Shown here: piece after piece, positions 8,203-53,624 of the stretch
Position numbering within the stretch: the first letter of the stretch is position 1
Layout of the letters: every line of letters starts with the position of its first letter
Source: Candidatus Bathyarchaeia archaeon
Lineage (GTDB): Archaea; Thermoproteota; Bathyarchaeia; Bathyarchaeales; Bathycorpusculaceae
Assembly (NCBI GenBank): GCA_049512075.1
Contig: JBEKXL010000004.1
Span: 64,001 to 128,000 of the forward strand
Length of the DNA: 64,000 nucleotides
Direction of reading: 5' to 3'
The notes under the pieces: model-generated
What the model saw: only the letters and a program-made list of their open reading frames with translations
The model's database searches: none
What the model was told of the DNA's origin: nothing
Program-made: the position numbers and the translations under genes

Positions 8203-8204
8203 GC

Positions 8205-34992: not shown

Positions 34993-35711
34993 TTACGTCT
35001 CTGTGGTGGGCATGCTGTCAGGAACGAATCGCATGAGCTTTTGTAACGAACGCATTTTCTCCCTCTCTCCAACTCTTGCATTCTGTACCGCTTGCCTGAG
35101 AATTTGAATGGACTCGTCCATGGCTCTTCTGTCAACTGGACGGGGAACGCCGTCCTTTCCGCCGTACGCGAAAGAGTATTTCACTGGGTCTTTCCAGCTC
35201 GGCTTTTCGCCGTAAATCACTTCTGCAACCAAGGCTAGGCCCCTAACCGTCGCGGGTCCGACACCTCTGAATCCGAGCAGTTCTTCATAGTTAGAGGGCT
35301 GGAACTCGTAGACGTCGCGCAGAGTCTTCCAGTTTGTGTTTCTAGGCATCGACAAATTGTCAAATGGATATTCTTTCCAATCGTCTTCCGCGCTTCTGGG
35401 CAGCCATTCGCCCAGCGACTTCTGGAATTCGGGCCTCAGAGATTGTAGCATTCGGATCAACCTTTTCGGCTCTTCCTTCGTAAGATCGACTGAGGCCTTT
35501 CGACAGCCCTCACTCTCTTCTGCGGTCATGTCCAAGACCGTGTCATGTTTCACGTCGCCCACTATCGCACTGTGCGGTTCAACGACAAAGCTTCTAACAT
35601 TGTCTGAGAGCCAATGATAGCGCCTCGCCGTCCGGTCTTCGGTGCACATGCCCTGTTGCACGACCGCCCACTTCCTATTATCGGCAATGAAGAATGCGTG
35701 GTGATAAAGCT
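34993..35711 (-). pseudogene. DUF763 gene, 3' half (separated by E2)
   Basis: Reads LYHHAFFIADNRKWAVVQQGM...ARRYHW...GVGPATVR.L.LVAE...FAYGGKDG from the junction. Confidence 0.9.
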
Positions 35712-35808
35712 ATCATTCGGCAAGTGGTGACATCTCCCGCACAATCCCCATTTTTTCTAACGTAAAGACTGCATCGTTAGCGGGTCTCACTTCTGGAAGG
35801 CGTGAACC

Positions 35809-36033
35809 ATGAGTGAAACACAAGAGAAACAGAAGAAAGAGCAAACAGAATGCGGATGGTTTGGCCACGCGGGTTGGTCAGCTAATCCCAATGACAAAGG
35901 CCTGCCTTTCGAATACTGCAAAGATTGTTCGAAACAGGAAAAATGCCGGAACAAGGACTTAGGCAACCAGGAAGAGAATGCAATAGAGTCAGCCTATGAT
36001 CAGATGTATGGACAAGAGGCTGAACAAGAATGA
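35809..36033 (+). CDS. small Cys-rich hypothetical protein
   Basis: C..GH...CKDC....C; first gene of a coupled four-gene operon. Confidence 0.6.
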   Translation: MSETQEKQKKEQTECGWFGHAGWSANPNDKGLPFEYCKDCSKQEKCRNKDLGNQEENAIESAYDQMYGQEAEQE

Positions 36034-36236
36034 GTGAAAAGGACCAAATCATTAAGCCTCTAGGGTTTTTGAACAGAAAAGGCAGTAGACTCGGCAACTC
36101 AAAAGAGGCCACTCATTTCCATGCAACCGAAAAATATGATGATGGTTTGGAAATTAGAGCCAGGTGTGTTAAGCTGGCGTGTGAAATGTTGGCAGAAGAC
36201 ATCCTGGTAAAAGAGTACATGAAGGTGAAGAAATGA
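36030..36236 (+). CDS. small hypothetical protein
   Basis: ATGA overlaps on both sides. Confidence 0.6.
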   Translation: MSEKDQIIKPLGFLNRKGSRLGNSKEATHFHATEKYDDGLEIRARCVKLACEMLAEDILVKEYMKVKK

Positions 36237-36355
36237 ACAAGCTAAAAGAAGCAATGTTGACCCTAGCAGCGATTTTGGGTTTAATTTGGATTTTAGCCAC
36301 AGACCTTAACGAATTTTCCGAGTGGTTGGAACAACGCGCCGGGAGCTGGCTCTAA
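36233..36355 (+). CDS. 40-aa single-TM peptide MNKLKEAMLTLAAILGLIWILATDLNEFSEWLEQRAGSWL
   Basis: Translated by hand; exactly bridges 36236 and 36356. Confidence 0.6.
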   Translation: MNKLKEAMLTLAAILGLIWILATDLNEFSEWLEQRAGSWL

Positions 36356-36667
36356 ATGAAGACACGACTCGAAGTGACTGAGAAATTCGTTATCATCCAC
36401 TCCCGAAATCATGACGACTTCAGCAGCCAATGCGGAAAGATTGAACATGAAGTCTCAGCGCGCTTTGAAATTGAAATTCCAGCAGAAGTCATAGCCTTGC
36501 TTCAGAACCTCAGACAATCTGGAAAGCTGGACCTGATAATTTCCTTGGAAGGCCAGCGCATGATCGACCTGAGAGATAAGGAACAAAAGAGTCCTTTCAT
36601 TTCGGACGGCAGCAACGTTGTCAAGGGCAAAAACATTCTGCAAAGAATAGTCGCTTGGGTTCTATGA
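36356..36667 (+). CDS. hypothetical protein
   Basis: ATG immediately after the previous stop. Confidence 0.55.
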   Translation: MKTRLEVTEKFVIIHSRNHDDFSSQCGKIEHEVSARFEIEIPAEVIALLQNLRQSGKLDLIISLEGQRMIDLRDKEQKSPFISDGSNVVKGKNILQRIVAWVL

Positions 36668-37296
36668 CAGTAAATAGGGTAAATAAACAGGTGAACAGCT
36701 TTCAATTCTTAATATCAGCTATCTTGCTTCATAGCGTGGAATGTTTGATGAAATTTGTACCCCAAGACCTTTAGCTTTGTTAACATTTATTTCTTTACTT
36801 ACAGCAGCAACGACTACACAGAGACACCTTGAGACTCAGTAAATAGTTTTGAAACATCAAGGCACGGAAGTTTAAGGATAGATAAATAAGAATAAACTTA
36901 CGAATAAAAGGATTCACGGGTTCATGGCAGCCCACGTTTTGTAGGATTGAGAAACACCAAAGTTTGCAGGGCTATTTACTGGTAAATAGCCGTGTTTTCC
37001 ATGCAGCCGAATAGGTTTAACATTCATAAGTAGTCGGGACGAGAGCTACAAGTGCGGGGTTAAGACTGAATAAAGAATGAAGGTCAACGTGGCAAGTAAT
37101 TTCGATGTCGAAAATAGTTGCCATGATGAATTTCCAGCAAAGAAGGAAGGGTCCGCGTATGGAGTCCGAGACCGAAACAAAGAAGGGCGGTTCATTATGG
37201 AGATTGACGGTGAACTTAGCACGGTGCTAATTATCTCTCAGCAGCCGAATAGGTAAATGAATAAGTAAATAAAAGGTTAGCAGAAAGGCTATTCGG
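36668..37296. repeat. repeat-rich locus between convergent operons
   Basis: CAGTAAATAG at 36668, 36837 and inverted at 36972; palindrome GCTATTTAC-TG-GTAAATAGC 36971-36990; GCAGCCGAATAGGT at 37003 and 37241; inverted CCGAATAG at 37289. Confidence 0.7.
37077..37256 (+). CDS. 59-aa ORF between 14-bp direct repeats
   Basis: Translated by hand MKVNVASNF...IISQQPNR; ends on the second repeat copy. Confidence 0.35.
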   Translation: MKVNVASNFDVENSCHDEFPAKKEGSAYGVRDRNKEGRFIMEIDGELSTVLIISQQPNR

Positions 37297-37349
37297 TATC
37301 TTTCTCGGTAAGTAAAAATATTAATAGGCATTGGGCTAGCCTAGTTCCT

Positions 37350-37442
37350 TCATATAATTCCTAGCCAGATTAGAACGATTCCAAGAGCTAAAACAGAGAA
37401 GCCTACAGCCATGCAGACATTTTCTAACATGTATTCGCTCAT
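37350..37442 (-). CDS. 30-aa single-TM peptide MSEYMLENVCMAVGFSVLALGIVLIWLGII
   Basis: Translated by hand; GAGG RBS; follows the recombinase. Confidence 0.5.
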   Translation of the reverse strand: MSEYMLENVCMAVGFSVLALGIVLIWLGII

Positions 37443-37462
37443 TGGATCCTCTTCAAGAAAAC

Positions 37463-38344
37463 TTAGCGATAACTCGGATTAGCCCTATTCATCTTTTCAG
37501 TCAATCCACGCCACCCGCGCTTTGCATAGCGGTTCGCAGTTTGCCAATCTTCCCATGAGAAATAGGCTAACAGATCAATGATTTCAAATTGGTAGTCATC
37601 GACTAACTGCGAGCTTCGCTGACTACGAAACCAATGAATCCATAGATGCAGCTCATCCGCGATTTTAACCTGTTCTTTTTTGCCGAGAACTGAAACCATG
37701 AAAGGTTCGTCAAGGCCCAGGCGCTGCTTCAGGTTCTTGGATGCTAGCCTATTTGTTTGCCGAATACACAGATAGGCCCACGTTGAAGTGTATGGCAGCT
37801 TCTTGTTAACGTCAAGTCTATCCGTGTCCACTGGTCCGTGAACTTTTTTAAAGTTTCTAGTATGCCGTTGCGGTGACGGAAACAAAAGGGCCTCAGGCTG
37901 TTCAATGCTGTTCAAGTGCTGCACGAGAAGAGCTGCCAGGGGTTCTCTTAACTGAATAGCGAATGGCTTCCTAGTCTTATAGAGTGTTTGAGTGTGCCAG
38001 CGTTTCTTCCCTTCCCCATCCACGTAAGAATCAAGTTTCACGTACCTTTTCAGCAGCCGCATTTTAGAAACCTTGACTACTCCCTCTTTTTCCATGACCT
38101 CAAAATTGTTCCGTTTCAACTGAAGAACTTCAGAAACCCTTCCTCCAGTTAGAAAGAGCGTAGCGAAAAACGCCTTTTGAATCGGCACTGTTATGAGGCT
38201 GAACAGTTCCAGCAGCGCGGTCCAGCCTACAAACTCTTCAATGTTCTCCGTTACTGAAAGCCTAAAATAGTCATGGCTGGCCCAGTATCCAACTCTGCTG
38301 GGTTCAAGAGAAGTTAAAGTTTCTATTTCAGAAATCACAATCAC
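37463..38344 (-). CDS. second tyrosine recombinase of E2 (catalytic domain with insertions)
   Basis: LTGGRVSE, HWFRSQR, FSW, ANRY; start uncertain (GTG 38344 or 38338). Confidence 0.85.
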   Translation of the reverse strand: MIVISEIETLTSLEPSRVGYWASHDYFRLSVTENIEEFVGWTALLELFSLITVPIQKAFFATLFLTGGRVSEVLQLKRNNFEVMEKEGVVKVSKMRLLKRYVKLDSYVDGEGKKRWHTQTLYKTRKPFAIQLREPLAALLVQHLNSIEQPEALLFPSPQRHTRNFKKVHGPVDTDRLDVNKKLPYTSTWAYLCIRQTNRLASKNLKQRLGLDEPFMVSVLGKKEQVKIADELHLWIHWFRSQRSSQLVDDYQFEIIDLLAYFSWEDWQTANRYAKRGWRGLTEKMNRANPSYR

Positions 38345-38346
38345 CT

Positions 38347-38574
38347 TCAGAAATACAAAGCTTCGAAACACGACTTGTGATAGTGCTTCACTGATTGATG
38401 ACCTAGAATGTTTGTGCAACGTGCGCAAGATTTTGAAACTATCACGTCGCCAACTTCCAAAGGCTTGCCACATTTCTGTGAGGCACACAGACGGTGCTTG
38501 AAGCGGTTAATGTTGTTAGGTTCAAGCGTGACTGTTCTTTCAGAATGTGCCGTTTCCTTCCATCTCCTTTCAAT
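38347..38574 (-). CDS. zinc-finger ORF without a canonical start (not in track)
   Basis: Open frame ...CASQKCGKPLEVGDVIVSKSCARC...KHYHKSCFEALYF*; ATT overlaps the upstream stop. Confidence 0.55.
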   Translation of the reverse strand: MERRWKETAHSERTVTLEPNNINRFKHRLCASQKCGKPLEVGDVIVSKSCARCTNILGHQSVKHYHKSCFEALYF

Positions 38575-41503
38575 GCTTCCTTCTATAGTCTATTATTGCG
38601 ATCAGCAACACGATCAGGATGACAATTATGAGGCCTCCAACAAGGTATTGAGGAGGCACAAGCTGCCGGGTGTTTTTCACCGTTATGTTGATTTGAGAGT
38701 AACTTGTCAAAATGTTTCCCCAGGGGTCGCTAGAGGTAATGGTTATCTGGCCTTGGTAAACTCCGTCCTTCACATCGGGTACGTTAATCGTTAAGGGTAT
38801 TGTTCCTGAACTGTTTGTGATTAGTGGAAGTTTCAAGGGCTGAACCCATGCGTTAATGGGCTGTGGAAAGTCTAAGCCTTCAATGACGAAAATGCTTTGG
38901 TTTGTGTAAGCTACGCTAGATGTGAAAGCGAAGGTGAAGTTAGCCATTACCCTGCTTGAAGGGTTAGAAGTGAAGTTAATATCGTTCACCTTGAGCGTTG
39001 AAACTATTGACGTGTAGCCGCCATCCGTTGTTGGTCCGGTCGGAGAACCTATGATTATTGGAATTGTGAAGCTGTCTTGACCGTTAATAGCGGAAACAGT
39101 CAAGGTTACAGGATAGACTCCCGCGGATTGGTAAGCGTGGGTGATTGTTGCCGTGTTGTTGTTTACGCCGGGTGTGCCGTCACCGAAATTCCAAAGATAA
39201 TTAGAGATTGTCGCGGTAGCATTAGACTGTTGAGCGTTGAAGGTTACGGTTTGGCCTGGACTCGGATTGAAAGGCGTGTAGGTGAATCGTGCATAGATGT
39301 AGTTGTTCCAGAAGTAAGCGGTAATGTTCACGCTGTCTATAAGCTGAGTTTGTTCTGAATTGCTATACCCTAATTCTTTTCCGATTTGGGTTAGGCCTGA
39401 TGTGCTGATGGTTGCTGAGATTAAAAAGCCTTTTTCTTTTCCTATTATGACGGTGCTGGACGGAGTTATAGTGTTGCTGGAAGTGTAGGCTTTCTCTATT
39501 CCGCTGGATTGTGTGCTTGAAATCTTTGGAGTTTCAAACAGAAAGTAAAAGAAGTTTAATCCTGCCGAATAAATTTGATTGACCGTATTTGTAAAACCTG
39601 AAATTATAATAGATTCTGAAGGCGAATAGTTTGTTTCAATTCCAGAAGTCGCGGTGAAGCTTGTGGTTATGATTCCTGAAGCTGTAAAACCTTTTTCAAT
39701 ACCTGAAGTTGAAGTGCTTGTTATGGTCACGGTGCTACTGGGAGAGTAGCCTATTTCTTTGGAAAAGCTAGAGCTGGAAGCTAAAGAGAGCGTGTTCGCG
39801 GGTGCAAACAGTCTTTCCAGTCCGCTAACAACCATTGAGGATAGGCTTAATGCTTCTGAAGATGTGAATCCTCTCTCGATGCCAGAACTTGAAAGACTCG
39901 AAACGGCTAGAGTGCCAGAAGGTGAAAAGGCTCTTTCTATTCCGCTGGAGATTATGGCTGAAATGGTTAGCTGATTCGAAAGTGAAAAAGCGTTTTCTGC
40001 CGCTTTGCTTGTGCTTCCTTGAACGGTTAAGGCTTCGTTTGGACTATAACTATACTGCGCTCCTCCTGCGCTTGCTTGCATGATGGCATCGGCAATTATA
40101 ATCCAATAAGCTGAACCACAAGTGAAATTAACTGCTGCGGCAGACTGAGTAGCTGAAACAACCTCATACTCTGTACCAATCTTGGCAGTGCATTGGATGG
40201 TTGTAAACCCAGCACCTACTGAAGGCACATTTGCGCTAGGACTTGCCATTCCAATTATGAAGTCATTAGCGTTAGAAGTTGTAATTGAAACTGTAGGATC
40301 AGCACTTAACCCACCACTTGCAGAAGGGTTGGCTCCCGCATTAGAATCGAAAATAGTTGTGGTATCAGCCCCGCTGATTCCGAATGCTACTCCCCTTTGA
40401 TATTCATTTGGTGTGCTAGTCATTGTGACGGTTACATTGATTCCACCATGACTTGCCCAAGTTGCATACCATTCCTCTATGACGTAGCGATAAGAATGGT
40501 ACATGACTATGGTTTTTCTTTGCGCCCAAGTAGAAGTCGAAACATTGGCGGATATGCTACTGACATTTACATAGAGATTATCATCAATCGCGACGGAAGA
40601 AACAATTAGCACATCATTATCTGTTGAAGTCGAGAAAACCAATGAGTATATAGTTGCGGTGAAATTGGTTTTTAATACGCTTCCGTCAAGAGCTGTAGGG
40701 TCTAGGTACACTGGAAAAACAGCACCGTCAATGAAGGCTTTAGGAATCCTTATGTTCACAATTAAAATGCCGTTGTTAGCCGTGACCGCGTAAACTCCGA
40801 GCGTCTTGTTTCCAGCACTATCCTCAATGTATGGTTGCGGAAGCCAATAGACCGTGTTGTTCTGAGCATCATTAAAGTCTACCGTGCCATTAGTCATGAA
40901 TTTCTGGTTAGTCGGATGAAGATAGCCAACACCGTTAGCATAAATCGTTAAGGAATTATTGAAGTAACAGTTAGCAACGTACTGGAGATAATCAGGTTTT
41001 ATGGAGCTTGAAGGCGCACTAACATTGTGAATTATCAAAGTTTCCTTTAGCTGGTCTTGAAAGGCTTGATACTGCAAGTCCGTGTTTATCCATGCTCCAG
41101 AATAGGTTAAGACGCTACTTCCTTCTGTAGTGTTGGCTTGAGTATTTTGAGGGTTCATTTCCTGAACCATGCCAATTATCGCGTCATAGCTGGAATTGTA
41201 CCAGTGCAGTTGGCTTGTGCTAATGTCCATGTCAAACGTGTAGCCTTGATATTGAAATCTCACGGCTTTCGAGCTTTTAGAATCATTCTTGAAGTACGCT
41301 TGATACGTTCCGTTTGCCATAAACGCATAACTCACATTGTCACTGTTAATTATGGGAATAAACGGTATGCTAGAACTTGCTTGACCGTCAATAGTTGCAG
41401 AAGCATGAACAGAAGGCACAAACTCGGAAACACTTAGGAAGCTAACAAGTAACAAAACCGTTATGAAGACTGTGAATGTTCGTTTTCTTTTCATTTTCTG
41501 CAC
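38570..41503 (-). CDS. large membrane-anchored surface/adhesin-like protein with 20-aa repeats and a PKD domain
   Basis: Signal peptide ending VHA; FPVYLDPT-ended N-domain; ~11 20-aa repeats; YLWNFGDG...HAY..AGVY.VTLTV; C-terminal TM followed by RRKH. Confidence 0.85.
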   Translation of the reverse strand: MQKMKRKRTFTVFITVLLLVSFLSVSEFVPSVHASATIDGQASSSIPFIPIINSDNVSYAFMANGTYQAYFKNDSKSSKAVRFQYQGYTFDMDISTSQLHWYNSSYDAIIGMVQEMNPQNTQANTTEGSSVLTYSGAWINTDLQYQAFQDQLKETLIIHNVSAPSSSIKPDYLQYVANCYFNNSLTIYANGVGYLHPTNQKFMTNGTVDFNDAQNNTVYWLPQPYIEDSAGNKTLGVYAVTANNGILIVNIRIPKAFIDGAVFPVYLDPTALDGSVLKTNFTATIYSLVFSTSTDNDVLIVSSVAIDDNLYVNVSSISANVSTSTWAQRKTIVMYHSYRYVIEEWYATWASHGGINVTVTMTSTPNEYQRGVAFGISGADTTTIFDSNAGANPSASGGLSADPTVSITTSNANDFIIGMASPSANVPSVGAGFTTIQCTAKIGTEYEVVSATQSAAAVNFTCGSAYWIIIADAIMQASAGGAQYSYSPNEALTVQGSTSKAAENAFSLSNQLTISAIISSGIERAFSPSGTLAVSSLSSSGIERGFTSSEALSLSSMVVSGLERLFAPANTLSLASSSSFSKEIGYSPSSTVTITSTSTSGIEKGFTASGIITTSFTATSGIETNYSPSESIIISGFTNTVNQIYSAGLNFFYFLFETPKISSTQSSGIEKAYTSSNTITPSSTVIIGKEKGFLISATISTSGLTQIGKELGYSNSEQTQLIDSVNITAYFWNNYIYARFTYTPFNPSPGQTVTFNAQQSNATATISNYLWNFGDGTPGVNNNTATITHAYQSAGVYPVTLTVSAINGQDSFTIPIIIGSPTGPTTDGGYTSIVSTLKVNDINFTSNPSSRVMANFTFAFTSSVAYTNQSIFVIEGLDFPQPINAWVQPLKLPLITNSSGTIPLTINVPDVKDGVYQGQITITSSDPWGNILTSYSQINITVKNTRQLVPPQYLVGGLIIVILIVLLIAIIDYRRKH
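39320..40057 (-). repeat. 20-aa tandem protein repeats
   Basis: ERAFSPSGTLAVSSLSSSGI / ERGFTSSEALSLSSMVVSGL / EIGYSPSSTVTITSTSTSGI and others; limits approximate. Confidence 0.8.
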
Positions 41504-41742
41504 TTCTCCATCATTTCTCGGTACTTGTGTTTTGCGAAATATCCAATGTAAACGATTGTTGGAAAAACCAGGGCAAATTCAACGGAGATTATGACCATGT
41601 TAGGTTCAACACCGTAGAAATAGCCTAAGAAGAATATGCTTGTGATCACAACTATTCCGAGAGCTGAAAAGACGATTATCAGCGACATGCCTATTGCATG
41701 GACTAAAACTTTCTTCCAGTCTAACGGACGAAGATTTTTCAT
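41491..41742 (-). CDS. small two-TM membrane protein
   Basis: Two hydrophobic segments; overlaps the next gene. Confidence 0.7.
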   Translation of the reverse strand: MKNLRPLDWKKVLVHAIGMSLIIVFSALGIVVITSIFFLGYFYGVEPNMVIISVEFALVFPTIVYIGYFAKHKYREMMEKCRK

Positions 41743-41744
41743 TT

Positions 41745-41942
41745 CTATATTTCTCCCAAAGCATCAAAATTGCCCTTGATAAGCGTCAGGTTGCCGTTTG
41801 AAAAAAGAACCATAATGCAAGATTCACCCATTGGACTATCTAGGAAGCCACAGAGAACACCGCTGACCCTGTAGTCTTCGATAACGACTTGAACCTGACG
41901 ATTTTTGAAAAGACAAACCAAATCGCTGTTCATGTTTTTCAT
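41745..41942 (-). CDS. putative Sm/LSm-fold protein
   Basis: KNRQVQVVI..YRVSGVLCGF.D....MVL...GNLTLIKG resembles Sm1/Sm2 motifs; 65 aa. Confidence 0.5.
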   Translation of the reverse strand: MKNMNSDLVCLFKNRQVQVVIEDYRVSGVLCGFLDSPMGESCIMVLFSNGNLTLIKGNFDALGEI

Positions 41943-42061
41943 TCCTCAGAAGGTAGTTTAGAGTGTTTCTTATTCCCGATTCTGGAAAGCTCTCCACGAG
42001 TTAGAAGGCCGACTACGAAGCTGAGGAAGGCTATCACGAGAACGTATGTATCTTCAATCAT
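41939..42061 (-). CDS. 40-aa single-TM peptide MIEDTYVLVIAFLSFVVGLLTRGELSRIGNKKHSKLPSEE
   Basis: Translated by hand; ATGA overlaps at both ends. Confidence 0.6.
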   Translation of the reverse strand: MIEDTYVLVIAFLSFVVGLLTRGELSRIGNKKHSKLPSEE

Positions 42062-42270
42062 CTGTGTGGACCTCTCTTTTTGGAAAGCATCATCATTGAA
42101 ACGATTAAGCCGAAGCTTATGCAGACTAAACCAAATGCAAAGCTTTCATGGTGAAGAAACTGGCTCCAATCCCACCAGTTGTTCCAAACCAAGTATTGTT
42201 GAAACATGACAAAGAAGGCTACTGTAACAAGAAGAACAGCAAGAAACTTCACGTTGCTTTGCTTGGTCAT
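42058..42270 (-). CDS. small two-TM membrane protein
   Basis: Two hydrophobic segments with a Trp-rich loop. Confidence 0.7.
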   Translation of the reverse strand: MTKQSNVKFLAVLLVTVAFFVMFQQYLVWNNWWDWSQFLHHESFAFGLVCISFGLIVSMMMLSKKRGPHR

Positions 42271-42536
42271 TGGTTGAGACTTCTCCCACTTTTGTTTCGA
42301 GTCTGAAGGATCCTAAGGAAGACGAATGCACCTATCGTGAAGCAGAACATGAAGGCTAGTAGCTGAAAGTTACCAACTAGAAAAGACATGAAATCTTTCA
42401 AACTTTGAGGAATTATATGTAAGCTGTCTCCAATTATGTAGAACAGTCCATAAACAAGGCCTGCTAAGGCTATTTTTGATATTACGCTTGCCCAGATTTT
42501 CGATTGAACACTTTTCTTAGGCATTCTATATACCAA
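42267..42536 (-). CDS. small two-TM membrane protein
   Basis: Two hydrophobic segments, basic termini. Confidence 0.7.
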   Translation of the reverse strand: MVYRMPKKSVQSKIWASVISKIALAGLVYGLFYIIGDSLHIIPQSLKDFMSFLVGNFQLLAFMFCFTIGAFVFLRILQTRNKSGRSLNQ

Positions 42537-42599
42537 GCCTACTTTTGTTGTTCATTCTCGGACAAGCATTGCATTTGAAAAGCCTTTCATTCAATCGCC

Positions 42600-43316: not shown

Positions 43317-43318
43317 GG

Positions 43319-43830: not shown

Positions 43831-43887
43831 GGTTTTTCAGTGAAAAAGTGCTAAGTCTTGAACATGGAACAGAAAAAAAGGAAAGGA

Positions 43888-44328: not shown

Positions 44329-44333
44329 TTTGT

Positions 44334-45515: not shown

Positions 45516-45610
45516 TTGAATCGAACTACTCTTCTCATTCGAATCTAATCTAGCGACTTTCACATTTCTTTGAACATGCGACAGAGAAAAAAAGGGAGAT
45601 AGAGGTTTTC

Positions 45611-45814
45611 TTAAAACCTTTCGTCCTTGAGTATCTCACGGAAAACAGGCCCTAACTCGTTCCACTTTATGACCTCTTCGCCGGTGGTTGCTTCCAAGTC
45701 TGACCTTATCGCGTCCACGATGTTGTATTCAAGGAAGGGAATTGGGTCCAGGCCGTAGTGGGTAGGTGTGTTTCTCAGAAATTCCATAAGGATCCTTGGA
45801 ACCTTCAACGTCAC
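45611..45814 (-). CDS. small RHH-like protein
   Basis: VTLKVPRILMEFL; T-rich tract downstream. Confidence 0.5.
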   Translation of the reverse strand: MTLKVPRILMEFLRNTPTHYGLDPIPFLEYNIVDAIRSDLEATTGEEVIKWNELGPVFREILKDERF

Positions 45815-45865
45815 CGTTTCATACTCGATGGGCTGTCGGACATTTTCTTTTGATGCTTTCGTGTT

Positions 45866-46444
45866 CTATTTCTCCTCTTCGTCTGGATTATAGCCATGTG
45901 TCCTTTCATTGAACCGTTCAAGCCAATCGGAAGGGTTCAGGCCATGCGTTCCAGCGAACTTTTCAAGATCACCGTTCAAGCTTTGCACCCTGGCATAGAT
46001 GGCTTTCATGCAGAAAGTTTCTACGTCGTCCTTGCAACCGAAGAACCGCAGGTACTCTTTAATGAAGTCTAGGAAGGGACTGATCACGGTTATTTTGAGC
46101 TGCACCATTTCACCCATTAGGTCATGTTTCCAGTTTGGATGATTCTTTCGCCAGAGCTGCTGACTGTTGAAAACCGTTGCTTTTTCTGTCCCGGACCCAG
46201 TGACGATCTCGATGAAGTCTCCTGCATCGAGCCAACTTCTTAGTTTCGCATATTGTTCAGCGTTCAAGGGGACCTCTAGGAAAGGCTCGTTCTGTTCAGG
46301 CTGATCAAACGTGGTCGCAGACTTGAAAAGAAACGCAACGTATTCCTCGACAGTCATGTTCTTGTTGTCTGCAAGCTCTTTCAGAGCCTTGTAGGTTGCG
46401 CCTTCTACACAGATTTTCTTAGTGGCTTCTGTTTCAGTTTCCAT
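45866..46444 (-). CDS. multi-RHH-like hypothetical protein
   Basis: ICVEGATYKALKELADNKNMTVEEYVAFL; start set at ATG 46444. Confidence 0.6.
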   Translation of the reverse strand: METETEATKKICVEGATYKALKELADNKNMTVEEYVAFLFKSATTFDQPEQNEPFLEVPLNAEQYAKLRSWLDAGDFIEIVTGSGTEKATVFNSQQLWRKNHPNWKHDLMGEMVQLKITVISPFLDFIKEYLRFFGCKDDVETFCMKAIYARVQSLNGDLEKFAGTHGLNPSDWLERFNERTHGYNPDEEEK

Positions 46445-46706
46445 GCTTTGAATCCTCCACCTTTGCCGGTTCTTCTTTTTGCTCTGACCAGAATATGCCA
46501 AGCTTCTTTTTGACCTCTTCATCATACCTTTTGGCTGCGATGCAATAGGCGTCTTCTATACGGCTGTGCAGAATGTCGAACAGTTTGGGAGCTGGAATGG
46601 GGTGGGGTATGGCTTGGGCCTCGCCTTCTAATAGACTCGCGCAGTCAAGGAAGCCTCGCAAGTAGTCAAGCTCTTTCTCTTGAAGTGTGTCTTCAGCGTC
46701 TTTCAT
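46434..46706 (-). CDS. hypothetical protein
   Basis: Starts at the conserved AAGGAGAAAAGAGAAAATG. Confidence 0.65.
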   Translation of the reverse strand: MKDAEDTLQEKELDYLRGFLDCASLLEGEAQAIPHPIPAPKLFDILHSRIEDAYCIAAKRYDEEVKKKLGIFWSEQKEEPAKVEDSKHGN

Positions 46707-46821
46707 TTTCTCTTTTCTCCTTTTGTGTGAAAGCTAGTATATCTGACCAAGTATATAAGTTAAATCCACAGTTTAATAATTGGTTTGTAACTGGGTTTAG
46801 TATTGTTCGCGGTCCGAACAA
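46702..46821 (-). promoter_or_regulatory. conserved promoter/operator/RBS module shared with E1
   Basis: TTGTTCG-N5-CGAACAA 46803-46821, AACCAATTATTAA 46773-46785, RBS block 46702-46722. Confidence 0.7.
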
Positions 46822-46833
46822 GAATAAGCAAAG

Positions 46834-47787
46834 CTACCGTTCCTTCTTTTCTTCTGTTTCTAATTTTTCCGATTCAGAAGAACCCGGAGGAGTCGAAATA
46901 ATCGTTTCCTCAGTCATGCCTGAAGTAATGGGTTTTCGAGAGCGTTTTATCCGCTTCCAATAACGACTCCAATGCTTCATCACTTCACGGTCATGTTCAC
47001 ACCGTTCTGTCATCTGTTCCAAGGTAGTATCAGCTAAGGCGGTCAGTTCCTTGTCAAGTTTGAAGACTGGTAGAAAATCCTCTCGGCTGTCTGGATGGAA
47101 AAGAACTATTCTAACAAATGTTTCCTTTCTTATTTCTTCAGCACGTGCAAGTGCTTTTTTGGTTCCCCATTTAATGAGTGCTCTCTCTTCAGCAGTGTCA
47201 ATTTGAGCATTAAACAGGGAAATGCCAAAATCTTCTATGAGTGACGATATATTCATAGCTTTTTGTTCCTCAGTCTTTTCCCGGGGCACAGGAACAAATT
47301 CTAAGTCGCCTTGTGATGTTATGTTCTTTTCTTTCTCAATCAGCGTTAGGGGATAATAATAATTTCTGAAATAGTTTTTCACGTTCTCGATGATCCTGTT
47401 CTTCAGGCCATGAACAGTGAAGAATTGCCACTTTCCGAGTACCGGGGGAAGTAATTTCTCGTGTTGACAGGCGATAGCATCAAAATCCTTTTCCTGTAAT
47501 TTATCAAGAGTTAGAGCAAAATATTGGAGCAGCCCCTCCAGTGTCATATCATAAGAGTCAACCTTCAAGCTGGGGTTTTTCGATGATGGCTCAGATTTTG
47601 CTTTCACTATTAAGTGATTCTCAAGTAAATCGCTGATCGTGTCATGTATGTTACCGTAACTTCTATGCAAAAGGCGTTTGAGTTCCCATCGGTTTTTAGG
47701 TTCTCCTGTTGCTAGGAGTTGTAGAATAGCTAGGTTTGTTGGTTCTTTGGTTCGTGGTTTTCTTTCATGGGATACTATCTTTGTCAT
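46834..47787 (-). CDS. winged-HTH regulator (putative repressor) of E2
   Basis: ILQLLA...NRWELKRLLHRSYGNIHDTISDLLENHLI...Y.MTLEG. Confidence 0.7.
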   Translation of the reverse strand: MTKIVSHERKPRTKEPTNLAILQLLATGEPKNRWELKRLLHRSYGNIHDTISDLLENHLIVKAKSEPSSKNPSLKVDSYDMTLEGLLQYFALTLDKLQEKDFDAIACQHEKLLPPVLGKWQFFTVHGLKNRIIENVKNYFRNYYYPLTLIEKEKNITSQGDLEFVPVPREKTEEQKAMNISSLIEDFGISLFNAQIDTAEERALIKWGTKKALARAEEIRKETFVRIVLFHPDSREDFLPVFKLDKELTALADTTLEQMTERCEHDREVMKHWSRYWKRIKRSRKPITSGMTEETIISTPPGSSESEKLETEEKKER

Positions 47788-47820
47788 AGTCTACTGATAA
47801 GTGACAAAAGATATATATAC
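47780..47820. promoter_or_regulatory. divergent promoter/operator of E2
   Basis: TTTGTCA (47780-47786) / TGACAAA (47802-47808) inverted repeat next to ATATATATA. Confidence 0.5.
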
Positions 47821-47858
47821 TTATCGCTGTACGTACTACTATCTTAGAGGAAAGACAG

Positions 47859-48128
47859 ATGCCCGCAAAAATATTCAGAAAGGTTCTCAAATCCGGCGCT
47901 TCAAAATGCGCTGCGTTACCACCTGATTGGCTACGCATGTTCAACCTACGGGTAGGCGACGACCTTGACATTATCTACAATTCCATAGTTATCGTGAAAG
48001 CAAAAGACTTCAAAATTGACCCAGAATTTCTGAAAAAAGAATTCAAGTTGATTCTTGATTTGGAAAAGAATGCTCAGGACCGCGTTGGACTGAGAAAGAA
48101 GAGCCAGGAGGCCAAGGCCATTGAGTGA
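47859..48128 (+). CDS. AbrB/MazE-like DNA-binding protein
   Basis: RKVLKSGASKCAALPPDWLRMFNLRVGDDL. Confidence 0.8.
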   Translation: MPAKIFRKVLKSGASKCAALPPDWLRMFNLRVGDDLDIIYNSIVIVKAKDFKIDPEFLKKEFKLILDLEKNAQDRVGLRKKSQEAKAIE

Positions 48129-48411
48129 AGACACGGTTGATGTCCTTCTCAAAATTGGAAACCGATTCTACGAAGGCAAACTACACCCTCAAAAAGTAGG
48201 ATCACCCGCAAAGCTTCCAAGCAACAAACCCGTTTTTCCAGAGCCCTATCAGCAAATGTTGGATACAACAGATCAAGGAACATACTGGCAGATAAAACCG
48301 AGAACTTTCTTACAAACTTTCGATTTTGCAGAAATCGCTAGAATTGTAAAGCAGTATGGCGGAGCTTACGTTTCTGCTGGAAAGTCCTCCCATTTTCGTA
48401 TACCAAAATGA
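48121..48411 (+). CDS. conserved ~100-aa element protein, homolog of 6754-7056
   Basis: Direct visual alignment to the E1 protein. Confidence 0.8.
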   Translation: MSEDTVDVLLKIGNRFYEGKLHPQKVGSPAKLPSNKPVFPEPYQQMLDTTDQGTYWQIKPRTFLQTFDFAEIARIVKQYGGAYVSAGKSSHFRIPK

Positions 48412-48432
48412 AATACCGCTGGGGGTCACAGC

Positions 48433-49248
48433 ATGACATGGAAGCCTAACGCTGAAACCAAACAGCTCCTAGATTTTTGCGTTGCCACAATAAAGAGCGT
48501 TCCGTACAAACCTAATCTCCGCTGGCTGTTCTATCGTGCGCTACAGAGTGGCCTCCTGAAGGATAAGGGAGAAGCCAGCGTTCACAAGTTTGACTATGCC
48601 CTTTCCCGCGCTCGCAAAGAGTTTTATGATGAATGGAAACCCGACAGCCTAGAAGATAGTGTACGGCAAGGATTCTGGAAGGGAGAGTTTTTCGCTGGCT
48701 ACGATGTAAGGCTAGATAACATTGAAGAACAGGAGAACTATGTTCAGGTTTGGTTTGAAGCCTACGCCATGTTCCAACAGTTCACCCATTACACGCAACC
48801 TTACCGGGTGTCCTTAGTTCCGTTTCGCGGTGACTGTTCTATTCCGTTGAAATGGGAATTGGCTAAGAAGCTGGAAGAAATCAACGGATCCTATCACAAG
48901 CCAACCAAGATTCTATACTTTGGAGATTATGACCTTAAAGGCTTCCAGATTCTTGAGGCTGCATTGAAGGATATTAAGGCATGGTGCAACGTGCCTTTCA
49001 CCGTTGAACGTGTTGGCCTCACACTAGAACAGGTCAAGGAGTACGGCATACCTGAAAACCCTGAGCACCCTGACGCATATCAGTGGGAAGCATTGAACGA
49101 TAAACAAGCTGGAACATTGATAATCAACAGTATAGCCAGCCTAGTCAAACCAGTTTTACCCGGGTTGGAAGAGCAGGAGAAGCTGATAAAATCCAAGATT
49201 AACACCGCTATGGTCACGATTCTGCAACAGGAAGGCGTTATCGAATGA
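48433..49248 (+). CDS. wHTH + Toprim protein (Topo VI-A/Spo11-like Toprim)
   Basis: LRWLFY, VWFE, RG.CS, ILYFGDYDLKG, ERVGLT.EQV, WEAL. Confidence 0.7.
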   Translation: MTWKPNAETKQLLDFCVATIKSVPYKPNLRWLFYRALQSGLLKDKGEASVHKFDYALSRARKEFYDEWKPDSLEDSVRQGFWKGEFFAGYDVRLDNIEEQENYVQVWFEAYAMFQQFTHYTQPYRVSLVPFRGDCSIPLKWELAKKLEEINGSYHKPTKILYFGDYDLKGFQILEAALKDIKAWCNVPFTVERVGLTLEQVKEYGIPENPEHPDAYQWEALNDKQAGTLIINSIASLVKPVLPGLEEQEKLIKSKINTAMVTILQQEGVIE

Positions 49249-49337
49249 ACGACCCCAAAGACGCCGACATTAAAGCTGCAGCTCAACGCGCGCTACGAGT
49301 ATCTCAGCGGAGACGGAGACTAACAAACCATGACTGA
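49245..49337 (+). CDS. 30-aa basic peptide MNDPKDADIKAAAQRALRVSQRRRRLTNHD
   Basis: Translated by hand; overlaps both neighbours. Confidence 0.4.
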   Translation: MNDPKDADIKAAAQRALRVSQRRRRLTNHD

Positions 49338-51939
49338 AAACTCCGCCATACCTGAGCAACTTAGAACATGGTGTTTCATACTTCTCTCAGGACACACTAA
49401 GATTCCAACGGCTGAAATGAAAGGATGGGCTAAAGACCGAGCAAACAAAACATTCACGTATGATGATAAGCGGTTCATAGAACATATCACCGCGCATGAA
49501 AACTACGGTGCTGTGACTGGCGAGGACCGCTTTGTCGTGGCCGCCGACACTAAGGAAGTTGAAACAGCCATTGAAGAGCATCTACCTAAAACCTTCACTG
49601 TGCAGAGTCCAAGACATAAGACTAAACATTTTTACTTCTATGGAAAACTCAGTCGAACAATACTCTGTAAACCGACAACTGAAGGCGATCCTTGCGCTGA
49701 CATTAAAACTGGAAATGCCTATGTACTCAGTGCTGGAGACATTTTTGAAAATTACGGCAAATACACCGTGATAGACAATGTGCCAATAGCAACAATCACG
49801 GAAGAGCAATTACTAGCCGCGATAGATGAGTTTATACTACCTAAAAAGGAAACACGTTTTCTAACCATAACAAGCGAAAAACACGATAAGAACTTGGACT
49901 TTCCAATCACCTCTATTCTTCCAAACCTTGACGCTTTAACACAGAACAACGATGAAATGTTTGGTCCTCATCCTCTACATGGCAGCACAACAGGAGCCAA
50001 CTTTCACGTAAACACGGCTAAGAATGTGTGGCACTGTTTCAGATCGGGACATGAAAGCGGCGGCGGCCCCCTGGAACTATTCGCGGTTCTAAACGGAATC
50101 GTCAACTGTGAGGACTGTCATAAAGGCGTACTACATGGAGAGCTATTCAAAAAAACCGTTATGCTAGCACATGAAAAAGGCTTAGTGGCCTCTATATCTT
50201 TTCAAGATTCAGAAGAGCAAGAGGATAAAGAACATGAACTTATGCGAAAAGTCGTAACAGGCCTTCAGTCTCAATTCACGTTCAAAACGCCTAGCGATAT
50301 TGAAGAAATCTATGTTTTTAATAAGGGCGTTTATGAAGAGGCTGAAACGATGATTAAAGGCCAGGTTGAACAGTGGCTAGGGACCGAGGCAACCACACAT
50401 TTTATTGAGGAAGTTCTCGGACATATACGCCGTAGTAGTTACGTTAAGCGCTCAGAGTTTAACAAACCATCAGCTATTATCCCGGTGCAGAATGGCCTTT
50501 TAGACTTGAACAGTGGTGAGGTCAGTCCATTCGATAAAGAACAAATCTTCACATTCAAACTAAATATGGTCTATGATAAGACAAAGAAGTCTCTCAAATT
50601 TCTGAAAGCTGTACATGAATGGCTAAACTCTCAAGACGTTATTACCCTGCAGGAAGTCTCAGGATATTGCTTACTTCCAGCTATGCCTTTTCATAAGTTG
50701 TTTTTCCTTCATGGAACGGGATTCAATGGGAAAGGGAGCTTCATAAGAACATTAATCGCCATTTTTGGAATTGACAACTGTTCAAACCTGAATCTGGAAG
50801 AGTTTGACGGTAACCACCGATTCGCTACGGCTCTACTCTATGGTAAAATGATAAACACGTCTAGCGAGCCAAAAACAGATAAACAATTACAAACGAATTT
50901 ATTGAAAAAGGTATGCGGCGAAGACTACATAGACTCTGAAGTGAAAAACAAACAGAGAAGAATACACCATGTGAGCGCCGCTAAACCTTTCATTCTTGGA
51001 AACAGATTCCCACGAGTAAACGATAACACAGTGGCCTTTTGGGAACGCGTAACAATACTCAAGTTTCCATCAAATTTCATAGGAGACAAACAAATACCAT
51101 GCATCTGGAACACATGGATAAACGATCCTGATGAAATGAGCGGGATCCTAAACTGGATGATTGAAGGGCTACAGAGACTAATAAAAAACAACAAGTTCAC
51201 CGAAAGCAAAGATTCTGAAGAGACAAAGCTGGAATTTCAAAGAGCCAGTGACACAACATTAGCGTTTCTCAATGAATGTTGCACTATTGACCGAGTAACT
51301 CAAAACATAAAATCCGACTTCTACGACCAGTACAAAACCTATTGCGAAAAGCTCAACGTAGAAATAGACCCTGAGAACATGTTTTCAGCAAAACTCAAGC
51401 AACAGTCAGGGGTCAGAAGTACAAGACAGCATGTAGAAAAAAAACTTGAACATTTATGGGTCGGCATAAAATTCAACGATTATCCTAAAGAAGAGGGAGA
51501 GGAAGAAAAATCTGAAAAGTCAGGGAAACAAAAAAATCATGGAACTCAAAAGAAACTAGACCAAAGTGTTCCACCTGTTCCAACTGTTCCACCCTTTACA
51601 AAGTCAAACGCTGTAGAAGATAGTAAGGGTATAGAAAAGAGAAGTAGTAAAAGGTATGGAACACCTGGAACAGGTGGAACAGTCATCGAGTCAATAGGGA
51701 AGACTGTTCCAGACGTTCCAACAGAAATAAGCAAACAATTAGAAAAGGAAAACTTGACCGTTAACCGCTGTAAGAAGCATCGTACAGCAACCTGCCCACA
51801 TCCTAATCGCGACTGCATAGCGCCGACTAATTCGTGTCCAAAGACTTGTGGAGATTTTGTTTCTGTGGAGGATGACGCTAAGGCTAAGGGTGCAGCTCTC
51901 GAGTTGAATGGTGACAGTGGGAGGCTAGGGCATGACTGA
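49330..51939 (+). CDS. Prim-Pol - Zn-binding - D5/SF3 primase-helicase (P4-like)
   Basis: NYG, PKTFTVQSP..TKHFYF, HPLHGS..G.NF...WHCFR, VQNGLLDL, GTGFNGKGS, AFWER. Confidence 0.9.
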   Translation: MTENSAIPEQLRTWCFILLSGHTKIPTAEMKGWAKDRANKTFTYDDKRFIEHITAHENYGAVTGEDRFVVAADTKEVETAIEEHLPKTFTVQSPRHKTKHFYFYGKLSRTILCKPTTEGDPCADIKTGNAYVLSAGDIFENYGKYTVIDNVPIATITEEQLLAAIDEFILPKKETRFLTITSEKHDKNLDFPITSILPNLDALTQNNDEMFGPHPLHGSTTGANFHVNTAKNVWHCFRSGHESGGGPLELFAVLNGIVNCEDCHKGVLHGELFKKTVMLAHEKGLVASISFQDSEEQEDKEHELMRKVVTGLQSQFTFKTPSDIEEIYVFNKGVYEEAETMIKGQVEQWLGTEATTHFIEEVLGHIRRSSYVKRSEFNKPSAIIPVQNGLLDLNSGEVSPFDKEQIFTFKLNMVYDKTKKSLKFLKAVHEWLNSQDVITLQEVSGYCLLPAMPFHKLFFLHGTGFNGKGSFIRTLIAIFGIDNCSNLNLEEFDGNHRFATALLYGKMINTSSEPKTDKQLQTNLLKKVCGEDYIDSEVKNKQRRIHHVSAAKPFILGNRFPRVNDNTVAFWERVTILKFPSNFIGDKQIPCIWNTWINDPDEMSGILNWMIEGLQRLIKNNKFTESKDSEETKLEFQRASDTTLAFLNECCTIDRVTQNIKSDFYDQYKTYCEKLNVEIDPENMFSAKLKQQSGVRSTRQHVEKKLEHLWVGIKFNDYPKEEGEEEKSEKSGKQKNHGTQKKLDQSVPPVPTVPPFTKSNAVEDSKGIEKRSSKRYGTPGTGGTVIESIGKTVPDVPTEISKQLEKENLTVNRCKKHRTATCPHPNRDCIAPTNSCPKTCGDFVSVEDDAKAKGAALELNGDSGRLGHD
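51567..51681. repeat. 3+3 inverted 9-bp iterons, putative E2 origin
   Basis: TGTTCCA(C/A)C x3 at 51567-51593 and NNTGGAACA x3 at 51655-51681. Confidence 0.7.
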
Positions 51940-53158
51940 AAACTCCACTAAATCAGTCATTAACGCAGTGCTCACAAAGGTACTAAGGACATGTGATAAA
52001 TGCCAAATAAAAACTGTTTTGTGCTGTCCTCAATGCAATTCTGATAAAATCGTGAAGGACGGTATGAGGCAATCCGTCTATGGAGAACAGCAACGTTACC
52101 TATGCAAGTCGTGTTATCTCCGATTCAGCAACAGCGACCCCGAAACAAAGGTGCAGAATCTGCACAATTCTTTTAAGGAAAGTCAGACAGAAAGCGGATG
52201 CGTCCAAATATGCGCTGAAAAGAAAGGAGTAGCGAAAAACTTGGACAACGCAACCATTGAGAAGGTTGCGGGAGAAACTCCAGATATTAAAGGCAAATTG
52301 GTACAGTACGCTTGGCAACTGACGAAACGCGGATTAGCTGAAGAAACCGTGAAGCATCGCCTTTACCGTTTGAACGTGCTTGTAAAGAAAGGAGCTGACC
52401 TAACTAATCCTGAAACCGTAGAAACAATCCTGGCAACGGAACAATGGACACCTGGAAACAAACGGTTCTTTATCATGGCATACCAAAGTTTCTGTCGAAC
52501 TATGAACATTGAATGGGTAGCCCCCCGAAACAAGTGGCAACCTCCACAGCCCTTCATACCCTTGGAATCAGAAATAGACGCATTGATTTCTGGCACTGGA
52601 AAAAGAACGGCCACACTACTGCAAATTTTGAAGGATACCGGGGCACGAATAGGAGAAGCCTCACACCTACGATGGACAGACGTAAACATGGAAAACAGCA
52701 CCATAGCCATAAACAACCCTGAAAAAGGATCATCATCTAGGACGCTGAAAGTGTCAAGCAAAACTATCGCTATGCTTAACGCCCTGCCAAAGAAAGGCCC
52801 TTTCATATTCAACGTCAAACCGCGCACCCTGGAAAGCACGTTTGACCGTCAACGGAATAGGTTAGCCCTTAAACTTCAGAACCCAAGACTGAAACAAATC
52901 CACTTTCACACCTTCCGGCACTGGAACGCAACAATGACATACCACAAAACCCGAAACATACTGCTAGTCAAATACCGACTGGGACATAAACGCTTAGAAA
53001 ACACGGAAGTTTACACGCACTTGGTAGATTTTGAGAACGACGAATACGACAGTGCAGCAGCTCAAACAAAGAATGAGGCAAGACAACTTATAGACACAGG
53101 ATTCGACTACGTGACCACAACCCCGGACGGTTTCATGCTGTTCAGAAAACGGAAGTGA
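51932..53158 (+). CDS. tyrosine integrase of E2 with N-terminal zinc ribbon
   Basis: CPQC...CKSC; TGARIGE, PEKG, HTFRH, LGH, VY; ends 34 bp from the att repeat. Confidence 0.92.
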   Translation: MTENSTKSVINAVLTKVLRTCDKCQIKTVLCCPQCNSDKIVKDGMRQSVYGEQQRYLCKSCYLRFSNSDPETKVQNLHNSFKESQTESGCVQICAEKKGVAKNLDNATIEKVAGETPDIKGKLVQYAWQLTKRGLAEETVKHRLYRLNVLVKKGADLTNPETVETILATEQWTPGNKRFFIMAYQSFCRTMNIEWVAPRNKWQPPQPFIPLESEIDALISGTGKRTATLLQILKDTGARIGEASHLRWTDVNMENSTIAINNPEKGSSSRTLKVSSKTIAMLNALPKKGPFIFNVKPRTLESTFDRQRNRLALKLQNPRLKQIHFHTFRHWNATMTYHKTRNILLVKYRLGHKRLENTEVYTHLVDFENDEYDSAAAQTKNEARQLIDTGFDYVTTTPDGFMLFRKRK

Positions 53159-53189
53159 AAAGCATGGTATCCAATCAAAAAACAATGTA

Positions 53190-53624
53190 TCAAAGCTGAT
53201 ACCCTGCCTGTACGGCCGTGTTGTCAACTTTGGCGCTCATTCTGCTGGCTCGGCGCAGAGCCTCGACGTTGTCGTCTGAAAACCCAAATTCTTCTCCGAC
53301 TGTGCCTATTTCCATTGGTGCCTTTCGAGAGGCTCTGCCTTTTCCGCCGCACACAGCGATACCGTGCTGCTGAGATGAGATGGCTTGTTTCAGAATTCCT
53401 GTCACAACCGTGGTTACTCCTGAAGAATGCCAGTCGTAACCTAGGACGCAACCCAATGCTTGGAACCAAAATGGATCTGAAACTCGTCTCAGAAACTCGT
53501 CTGAGCCGTACTCGTCAACGATGATTGTCACTATTTCTTTGGCCATCTTTTGCATGCGTACAATTAGATATTGAGGCGCCCTACCATAATGAAGTGGGAG
53601 TCTGGCAATGCCTGTTCTTTGCAC
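53190..53624 (-). pseudogene. DUF763 gene, 5' half (truncated by E2)
   Basis: LPLHYG, DPFWFQALGCVLGYDWHSSG.TT, GGKG, AKVDNTA.Q.GYQL then an element-derived TGA. Confidence 0.92.

Follow-up and report, generated by a model that had tools for sequence, protein, structure and literature searches.

Several bacterial mobile elements reside within host genes, including skin in sigK of Bacillus, SPbeta in spsM, the nifD, fdxN and hupL elements of Anabaena and SpyCIM1 in mutL. In active lysogeny, as described in PMC8987985, an element such as the comK prophage of Listeria lies within a reading frame and its precise excision rebuilds the gene. On the archaeal side, a survey of thaumarchaeal elements (Krupovic et al. 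2019; PMC6563490) reports 14 elements in protein-coding genes, all 3'-distal and with a worked example in which the frame is rebuilt, and attachment (att) sites that have a median length of 17 bp, can be as short as 8 bp and were checked against empty sites in relatives. For the "suicidal" archaeal integrases of the SSV type, PMC8371274 describes an integration that splits the integrase gene itself. Here, we identify E2, a 17,486-bp stretch of DNA that interrupts the DUF763 gene of a Candidatus Bathyarchaeia archaeon, as very probably a true integrated mobile element of its Bathyarchaeia host with a dedicated attachment site (attB) in the middle of that gene. E2 lies in the window, i.e., the whole analyzed stretch of 64,000 nucleotides (assembly GCA_049512075.1, contig JBEKXL010000004.1, positions 64,001 to 128,000), and all positions given below count from the first letter of this window.

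We suggest that the integrase of E2 would act on a site carried by E2 and on a 6-bp core within the sequence encoding the invariant motif QAGYQL|YHH, recombining the two. Integration at this core would split the sole DUF763 gene into a part encoding a 144-residue N-terminal helical domain and a promoterless 3' half. Because one part ends in a stop codon and the other lacks a promoter, DUF763 would be off in the window genome. Because the crossover would lie within identical 6-bp cores, the DUF763 frame would be restored exactly if the same integrase excised the element. Judging from sequence, a single integrase probably catalyzes both integration and excision; occupancy of the site is reversible in principle, and the insertion of E2 appears to be recent or transient.

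Like the bacterial intervening elements, E2 is located mid-frame, is bounded by short direct repeats, brings its own recombinase and would rebuild the gene upon precise excision. Unlike them, it has an archaeal host, has kept a replication module and occupies its site in a rare and scattered rather than fixed manner, and no excision of it was seen in the assembled contigs of the runs that hold it. E2 resembles the thaumarchaeal elements in being archaeal, in encoding a tyrosine integrase, in its very short att sites and in having an empty site in a relative, but it is inserted at codon 144 of 381 instead of 3'-distally, places a TGA immediately after the break and does not rebuild the frame. 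DUF763 is not among the targets named in the accessible part of the thaumarchaeal survey (PMC6563490), in which three "conserved hypothetical" targets are given by accession only. As in the SSV type, an archaeal tyrosine recombinase splits a gene by integration; in contrast to that type, the E2 integrase is whole (408 aa), the core lies ∼33 bp past its stop codon, and a host gene is split instead. Our literature search, which covered Bathyarchaeia integrases and att sites as well as archaeal active lysogeny, returned no report of the DUF763 site, nor of an archaeal counterpart of mid-gene integration with exact restoration; the one paper found to mention DUF763 is unrelated.

The significance of the E2 junctions derives from their codon-exact fit to intact orthologues. 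DUF763 is a single-copy gene in the host genome (2.73 Mb in 86 contigs; completeness 99.76%), which contains no second match, and the gene is broken between Leu144 and Tyr145, with both parts on the minus strand. The 5' half (53190 to 53624; coding part 53624 to 53193) comprises 144 codons ending in NTAVQAGYQL and matches positions 1 to 139 of the 319-position PF05559 profile (E = 8.7e-62). The 3' half (34993 to 35706) starts with YHHAFFIADNRK, runs for 237 codons, from YHHAFF up to the native stop, and matches positions 140 to 319 of the same profile (E = 8e-63). The two halves jointly cover the profile without overlap or gap, score 209.6 and 213 bits (Pfam gathering score, 35.5) and translate without internal stops. 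The TGA directly after Leu144 (53192 to 53190) is supplied by the first bases of the element, two in-frame stops lie on the element side immediately 5' of Tyr145, and the first possible start in the 3' half is a GTG located 15 codons inside. E2, because of the stop directly after Leu144 and the two stops ahead of Tyr145, neither repairs DUF763 nor provides its 3' half with a start. The ends of E2 (about 35706 to 53197) are 6-bp direct repeats that read AAAGCT on the plus strand, one at the integrase-side junction (53192 to 53197; attL in gene orientation) and one at the distal junction (35706 to 35711; attR in gene orientation), and in the empty-site joint described below these six letters fit both sides. 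The hexamer repeat by itself is not significant, as AAAGCT occurs 38 times on the plus strand of the window. In three genomes of the same genus (G002, G003 and G004), by contrast, DUF763 reads without interruption across the site (...QAGYQLYHHAFF...; the site region is also given as ...VQAGYQLYHHAFF..., unbroken), with no residue lost or gained, and the closest of these orthologues (G002) is 94% identical to the window halves. The columns A137, Q139, A140, G141, Y142, L144, Y145, H146, H147, A148 and F149 of the motif around the break are invariant in 15 orthologues. The base composition also changes at E2, with a GC content of 0.38 to 0.45 across 36 to 53 kb and of 0.47 to 0.51 in the flanks. 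Altogether, the structure that the first-pass annotation had described for this locus, i.e., a clean split into two open halves 17.5 kb apart that would rejoin in frame across the AAAGCT copies and for which E2 supplies no repair sequence, was confirmed in each of these respects, with the in-frame joint now read from the three orthologues and from an empty site.

This empty site was found among public metagenome runs. We found 24 runs containing the host flank, all in the form of assembled contigs and none recorded as RNA, and compared four of them against positions 34300 to 54200. In run X1, which is possibly the source sample, separate contigs bridge each junction (record 1 covers 34300 to 36008 and record 7 covers 43823 to 54200); because these contigs are independent, the join between E2 and the host is not an artefact of assembly or binning. 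Runs X5 and X6 contain E2 at low depth. In run X7, a freshwater sample from another study, a 29,138-bp contig with a depth of 39.6 joins 35705 to 53192 with no letters in between and six letters shared. This contig differs from the window at 10 of ∼2,414 aligned letters and is thus the exact empty site in a near-identical host (∼99.6%). The same run holds a 16.6-kb contig with a depth of 41.3 that matches the E2 cargo from 36.8 to 43.4 kb at ∼97.6% identity, and pieces of it up to 46.8 kb (matches within 35788 to 46822). It does so without the primase/integrase end, and it diverges ∼80 bp inside the distal junction, which suggests that the E2 cargo in X7 travels with a different integration module and that modules are exchanged. 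A free form of E2 was not recovered with the integrase protein, which matched nothing in the viral contig collection and only the window's own DNA (100% identical) among metagenome contigs. As a separate observation, two 32-bp stretches, one in the host flank (34923 to 34954) and one in E2 (45614 to 45645), match unrelated long contigs of X1, and each recurs in that run.

E2 had been treated as a one-off in the first-pass annotation; instead, it is one case of a recurrent mid-gene landing site that is used by several integrase lineages. Of the 401 genomes of the order, 303 contain DUF763, as do 196 of the subset of 238 high-quality genomes, and the gene is almost always a single intact copy. 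The survey for insertions at this codon that had been proposed earlier identified an insertion between Leu144 and Tyr145 in seven of these 401 genomes. Both junctions could be read in six of them (the window genome, G238, G264, G290, G312 and G155), and only the integrase-side junction, located at a contig start, in the seventh (G183). The count of seven is a lower bound; it comes with the re-examination of 25 genomes in which DUF763 appeared in two pieces or with half-sized scores, and other partial matches, e.g., in G225, G279, G288, G112, G182 and G190, were left out of it. Four carriers belong to the genus g17, with inserts of 14.5 kb (G238), 4.3 kb (G264), 13.5 kb (G290) and 4.6 kb (G312), while G155 (insert ∼3.9 kb) represents another family and G183 a third genus. 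Some of the six other genomes in which the junction recurs have it on contigs of 0.35 to 2.5 Mb. Five of the six carriers of the convergent type, to which E2 belongs, have TGA as the element start after Leu144, and G183 has TAA. The 6-bp identity tracks the codons of the respective host (AGCTTT or AACTCT in gene orientation). In four of five convergent-type carriers, the frame upstream of Tyr145 stays free of stops over 18 or more codons of element sequence, and no start codon upstream of the 3' half is conserved among carriers.

The inserts at this codon otherwise have little in common. The four g17 inserts mutually share only the ∼1-kb integrase gene (68 to 82% nucleotide identity), with ∼55 bp at the far end additionally shared by G238 and G290, and no pair of E2 with another insert reached the blastn threshold of E 1e-10; by eye, the junction arms of E2 resemble those of the other inserts. 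When 185,579 species genomes were scanned for the junction pattern, 13 stretches were returned: five come from the Bathyarchaeia genomes G183, G238, G264, G290 and G312, and eight are chance matches in bacteria. In a collection of 5.8 billion proteins, we found 793 short N-terminal DUF763 fragments; among the best 120 clusters of these fragments, Leu144 is the last residue in 16, the sequence departs from DUF763 directly after Leu144 in a further 17 (33 of the 120), and in three it diverges after RRYHW.

Other integration modules also use DUF763. The element in G155 is inserted at the same codon with a 20-bp repeat and encodes a 279-aa integrase that lacks the zinc ribbon and is co-directional with the gene. 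Its start lies 15 bp after the truncated DUF763 open reading frame (ORF) on the same strand (region 2478 to 3805 of G155:C59:19500-29000), so that transcription of the host operon may continue into the integrase. A reading of the G155 locus as a decayed integrase between intact halves was dropped, since the locus encodes an intact integrase; the four stops in the integrase match arose because the alignment ran into the neighboring gene. The G155 element also contains a 458-aa ORF without a family match on the opposite strand (4481 to 5857). In G085, an insertion of 14 kb interrupts a second invariant motif, RRYHW|LS (G085:C5:5800-24900; junctions near 2527 and 16600), and an unrelated 457-aa tyrosine integrase adjoins the 3' piece. 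Thus, DUF763 is targeted in this order by no fewer than three kinds of integration module, of which two use the Leu144 codon and one the second motif. Two further candidates, G324 and G148, were rejected as carriers because their contigs read through the site (QAGYQLYHH and QAGYPLYHH) and end 9 to 14 codons past it; the contig breaks soon after the site might reflect mixed occupied and empty populations, or chance. Partial matches at or cut by contig ends in G059, G257, G342, G331, G118, G053 and G039 were uninformative, and these genomes were likewise not accepted as carriers. G265 and G245 contain only 3' remnants of DUF763 in mid-contig, with no partner within the stretch examined.

The integrase of E2 (51932 to 53158, plus strand) is a 408-aa tyrosine integrase (PF00589, E = 8.9e-20) with an N-terminal Cys4 zinc ribbon; its matches to Zn_ribbon_InsA (E = 3.5e-4) and to an XerA-like NCBIfam model (E = 1e-23) lie under the respective model cut-offs. 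Its ORF is whole and convergent with the DUF763 5' half. The first-pass annotation had credited this protein with all catalytic residues. In the alignment to the XerA chains 5hxy and 4a8e, the R (ARIGE), K (KGSSSR), HxxR (HTFRH), GH and Y (VYTH) motifs are indeed all present. The R, K, HxxR, H and Y motifs are taken as the catalytic residues of the tyrosine recombinase family, and the activity of the E2 integrase is predicted from them. Members of this integrase family occur in 236 of 301 genomes of the order (E <= 1e-20), often in several copies. At nine of the 15 loci nearest to the window integrase, a tRNA gene lies within ∼120 bp of the integrase 3' end. The tRNA-targeting integrases of the order are 43 to 52% identical to the window integrase and share with it the layout of a zinc ribbon and a catalytic domain as well as an att site within ∼120 bp of the 3' end, but the targets of the window integrase and of its closest DUF763-linked relatives lie within a protein-coding motif. 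Because the nearest relatives adjoin tRNA genes, the DUF763 specificity would represent a retargeted variant of a tRNA-targeting family. Among 33 integrases placed in a tree, those of g17 that are linked to DUF763 (four) form a clade with 100% support, the window integrase stands alone, and the G183 integrase groups with that of G184 (98%); the neighbors of this pair are integrases with tRNA-Val and tRNA-Glu as targets. We read this as one or a few putative retargeting events from tRNA genes to an equally invariant coding motif. G184 itself (G184:C6) has a 55 to 57% identical integrase with a similar end arm, and the adjoining DNA is not DUF763; beside this integrase is a short ...SHHA* stretch that resembles the YHHAF side of the site.

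Several observations weigh against the interpretation of E2 as one of a set of elements dedicated to this site. The DUF763-linked integrases do not form one supported clade, with deep nodes at 67 to 69%, so that the notion of one family with inherited specificity is only partly true. In G238, the integrase frame, which lies in the first 1.4 kb of the insert, is broken into pieces of 138 and 267 codons, which could be due to decay of the element or to a long-read assembly error. Neither the empty-site joint nor a circle joint was seen in the E2-holding runs X1, X5 and X6, all consisting of contigs, from which rare variants are dropped. The dN/dS comparison described below is weak for recent insertions, with dS near 1 in most pairs. 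Finally, the att identity is 6 bp here, and the thaumarchaeal survey gives a minimum of 8 bp (PMC6563490). With an identity of only 6 bp, extra arm sites would have to carry the specificity; conserved arms are visible and are candidates for this role.

Nothing in the selection analysis sets the split alleles apart. The DUF763 halves are open in all six carriers with both junctions, and none is decayed. We compared pairwise ratios of non-synonymous to synonymous substitution rates (dN/dS, Nei-Gojobori) and a plain DUF763 tree. Pairs that include a split allele have dN/dS values of 0.04 to 0.14 (median 0.077; 26 pairs) and intact pairs have values of 0.05 to 0.11 (median 0.082; 28 pairs), and relaxed selection is therefore not detectable; between the window and G002, there are 14 non-synonymous and 28 synonymous differences. 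This ratio had been put forward as a check in the first-pass annotation; split and intact values match, in a comparison that is insensitive to insertions of recent origin. In the DUF763 tree, intact sister species separate the four g17 carriers from one another, which argues that their insertions are independent and probably young. A simple knockout with decayed halves and without a rejoined form, the outcome set against a switch in the first-pass annotation, is not what we observed, given the rejoined form in X7 and the six undecayed carriers. DUF763 was not found in 98 of the 401 genomes, including 42 of the 238 high-quality ones, and whole genera lack it (e.g., 0 of 5 genomes in g42). In addition, DUF763 is frameshifted without any element in G359 and G387, as read directly, and adjacent overlapping DUF763 pieces in G184, G001 and G373 are probably frameshifted or fragmented copies likewise; in G184, these overlapping pieces, with three stops inside the larger match, are on a different contig from the integrase. 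DUF763 thus appears to be dispensable in some lineages, with its loss tolerated. The observation that element-free copies decay while no carrier does mildly favors a short-lived or reversible occupancy.

How well do other explanations account for these observations? The window genome is a metagenome assembly in 86 contigs, and a free element could have been joined wrongly to a host contig in assembly or binning; with independent X1 contigs bridging both junctions and the same type of junction in six other genomes, some of it on long contigs, this is scarcely credible. It is also very improbable that the insertion is silent, with the two halves still working as separate polypeptides. Such an arrangement would fit the position of the break between a confidently modeled helical N-domain and a beta-sheet, as well as the open frame ahead of Tyr145 in four of the five convergent-type carriers, but the window has two stops before Tyr145, initiation at the internal GTG would drop the first strand, the invariant motif itself is severed, and the carriers have no start codon in common. 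An effect that benefits the element has more to be said for it. If DUF763 hinders mobile elements, e.g., as a DNA-binding or repair factor, then landing in DUF763 would switch it off and the element would gain. In line with this idea, at least three kinds of module converge on DUF763 (the convergent type with the 6-bp core, the G155 type with the 20-bp repeat and the G085 type at RRYHW|LS), and all of them leave the gene unrepaired, in contrast to the elements that occupy gene 3' ends in Thaumarchaeota (PMC6563490). We nevertheless consider it unlikely: searches with DUF763 returned no match among PADLOC defence models, NCBIfam models or solved structures (compared by sequence and by fold), its position directly behind a coenzyme A (CoA)-pathway gene in 15 of 26 loci does not suggest defence, and a simpler account is that a dispensable gene with nearly invariant nucleotides offers a safe landing pad across hosts.

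The first-pass annotation had favored E2 as a candidate excision-controlled switch akin to active lysogeny, in which E2 would keep DUF763 off and excise under defined conditions, like the comK, sigK, spsM and nifD elements. We found no positive evidence for such a host-serving switch and consider it quite unlikely. Excision would restore the frame exactly, the halves are undecayed in the six carriers with both junctions, split and intact alleles have equally low dN/dS, strong purifying selection (dN/dS about 0.08) acts on DUF763 as a single-copy gene, and the break falls at a modeled domain boundary, all of which would be expected of a switch. Against this stand the lack of an excision product in the assembled contigs of the occupied runs and the absence of DUF763 from about a quarter of the genomes. 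Moreover, the seven carriers among 401 genomes are scattered and the compared inserts have unrelated cargo, which points to independent infections rather than an inherited regulatory device. No recombination directionality factor, condition-dependent regulator or sensor was identified in E2, and cell differentiation is not known for this archaeal group, which we count against a switch. Domesticated switches, according to PMC8987985, have usually lost their replication module, which E2 retains in full; neither fixed inheritance with the host lineage nor loss of autonomous functions, as in active lysogeny, is seen in E2. Ordinary target-site specificity of a mobile element accounts for the recurrence of insertions in DUF763 no less well than a switch that serves the host. 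More broadly, the on/off state of DUF763 might be set by mobile elements, with several unrelated modules having evolved to land in its two invariant coding motifs without repair, either because its shut-off aids their establishment or because hosts use the reversible occupancy as a population switch; we regard this as doubtful, but if true, bacterial active lysogeny would have its first counterpart in archaea, and there would be a handle on the function of the widespread DUF763 family.

Interpreting E2 as a mobile element with a dedicated site in DUF763 has consequences irrespective of any switch. A lineage within the tRNA-targeting integrase family of Bathyarchaeia would have been retargeted to an invariant coding motif, and the locus offers a concrete set of attB, attP and integrase for an uncultured, globally abundant archaeal class. 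Metagenomes commonly contain truncated DUF763, in dozens of distinct alleles, and the carriers provide a set of natural knock-outs of this conserved gene. For annotation, DUF763 fragments of 144 residues can serve as a marker that flags an integrated element.

The DUF763 protein itself gave few leads to its function. A first AlphaFold model based on 15 sequences was poor (mean predicted local distance difference test score [pLDDT] of 53.5), and a second based on 96 sequences reached a pLDDT of 79.7 and a predicted template modeling score of 0.77. The second model predicts an N-terminal helical domain (18 to 137), a beta-sheet (143 to 194) and a helical C-terminal part, and places the insertion site at a domain boundary, between a helix (117 to 137) and a strand (143 to 152). 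A fold search against the PDB returned 229 matches, none at E <= 0.001; sequence searches against the PDB returned nothing credible (best E = 0.022 in one search, none in the other), and DUF763 had no match in NCBIfam, the PADLOC defence models or the protein atlas. The family was also matched in Sulfolobus acidocaldarius, which was part of the control panel. Its C-terminal G-V-G-P-A-T-V-R-G-L-A stretch looks like a helix-hairpin-helix motif, which would speak for the reading in which the shut-off of DUF763 benefits the element.

As stated in the first-pass annotation, DUF763 follows a CoA operon on the same strand: genes for a PPAT-like cytidylyltransferase, CoaBC (DFP and Flavoprotein families) and a pyridoxal phosphate-dependent decarboxylase lie upstream (53667 to 56642, minus strand; family matches). 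Of 26 loci examined, 15, from several families but not from genus g17, have a PPAT-like gene (53667 to 54155 in the window) as the immediate upstream neighbor of DUF763 on the same strand. This arrangement hints at a functional link of DUF763 to CoA metabolism.

Besides the integrase, E2 encodes a putative replication module, an 869-aa primase-polymerase fused to a D5/P4-type helicase (49330 to 51939, plus strand; Prim-Pol, D5_N, DUF5906 and Pox_D5; TIGR01613, E = 1.9e-51; phrog_864, E = 8.4e-67). Primase-helicase genes are reportedly frequent in thaumarchaeal cryptic integrated elements. The adjacent 271-aa protein (48433 to 49248, plus strand) has a weak Toprim/JetD-C-like region (phrog_6247 "DNA topoisomerase", E = 1.1e-18; JetD_C, E = 0.008; PADLOC JetD, E = 8e-4). 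The minus strand carries genes for a 317-aa protein with an HVO_A0114-like N-terminal domain (46834 to 47787; PF25212, E = 6.6e-7), a winged-helix (ArsR/MarR-like) DNA-binding protein that is a candidate regulator of the element (44334 to 44885; HTH_20, E = 6e-8; also HTH_5 and MarR) and a 977-aa PKD-domain protein without a PHROG match (38570 to 41503; PKD_4, E = 3.7e-17), which is cargo and possibly a surface protein. No capsid, packaging or other virion genes were detected among the E2 genes, and we therefore refer to E2 as a cryptic, plasmid-like integrative element. Winged-helix proteins and many small ORFs without a family match complete its content. A 341-aa ORF (37463 to 38488, minus strand) has a weak partial integrase match (PF00589, E = 3.3e-4, under the cut-off; phrog_1, E = 5.4e-7) and could represent an additional or degenerate recombinase or a remnant of a nested element. 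Outside E2, the window contains a second low-GC stretch at 7001 to 11000 (GC content 0.39 to 0.44), presumably the element termed E1 in the first-pass annotation.

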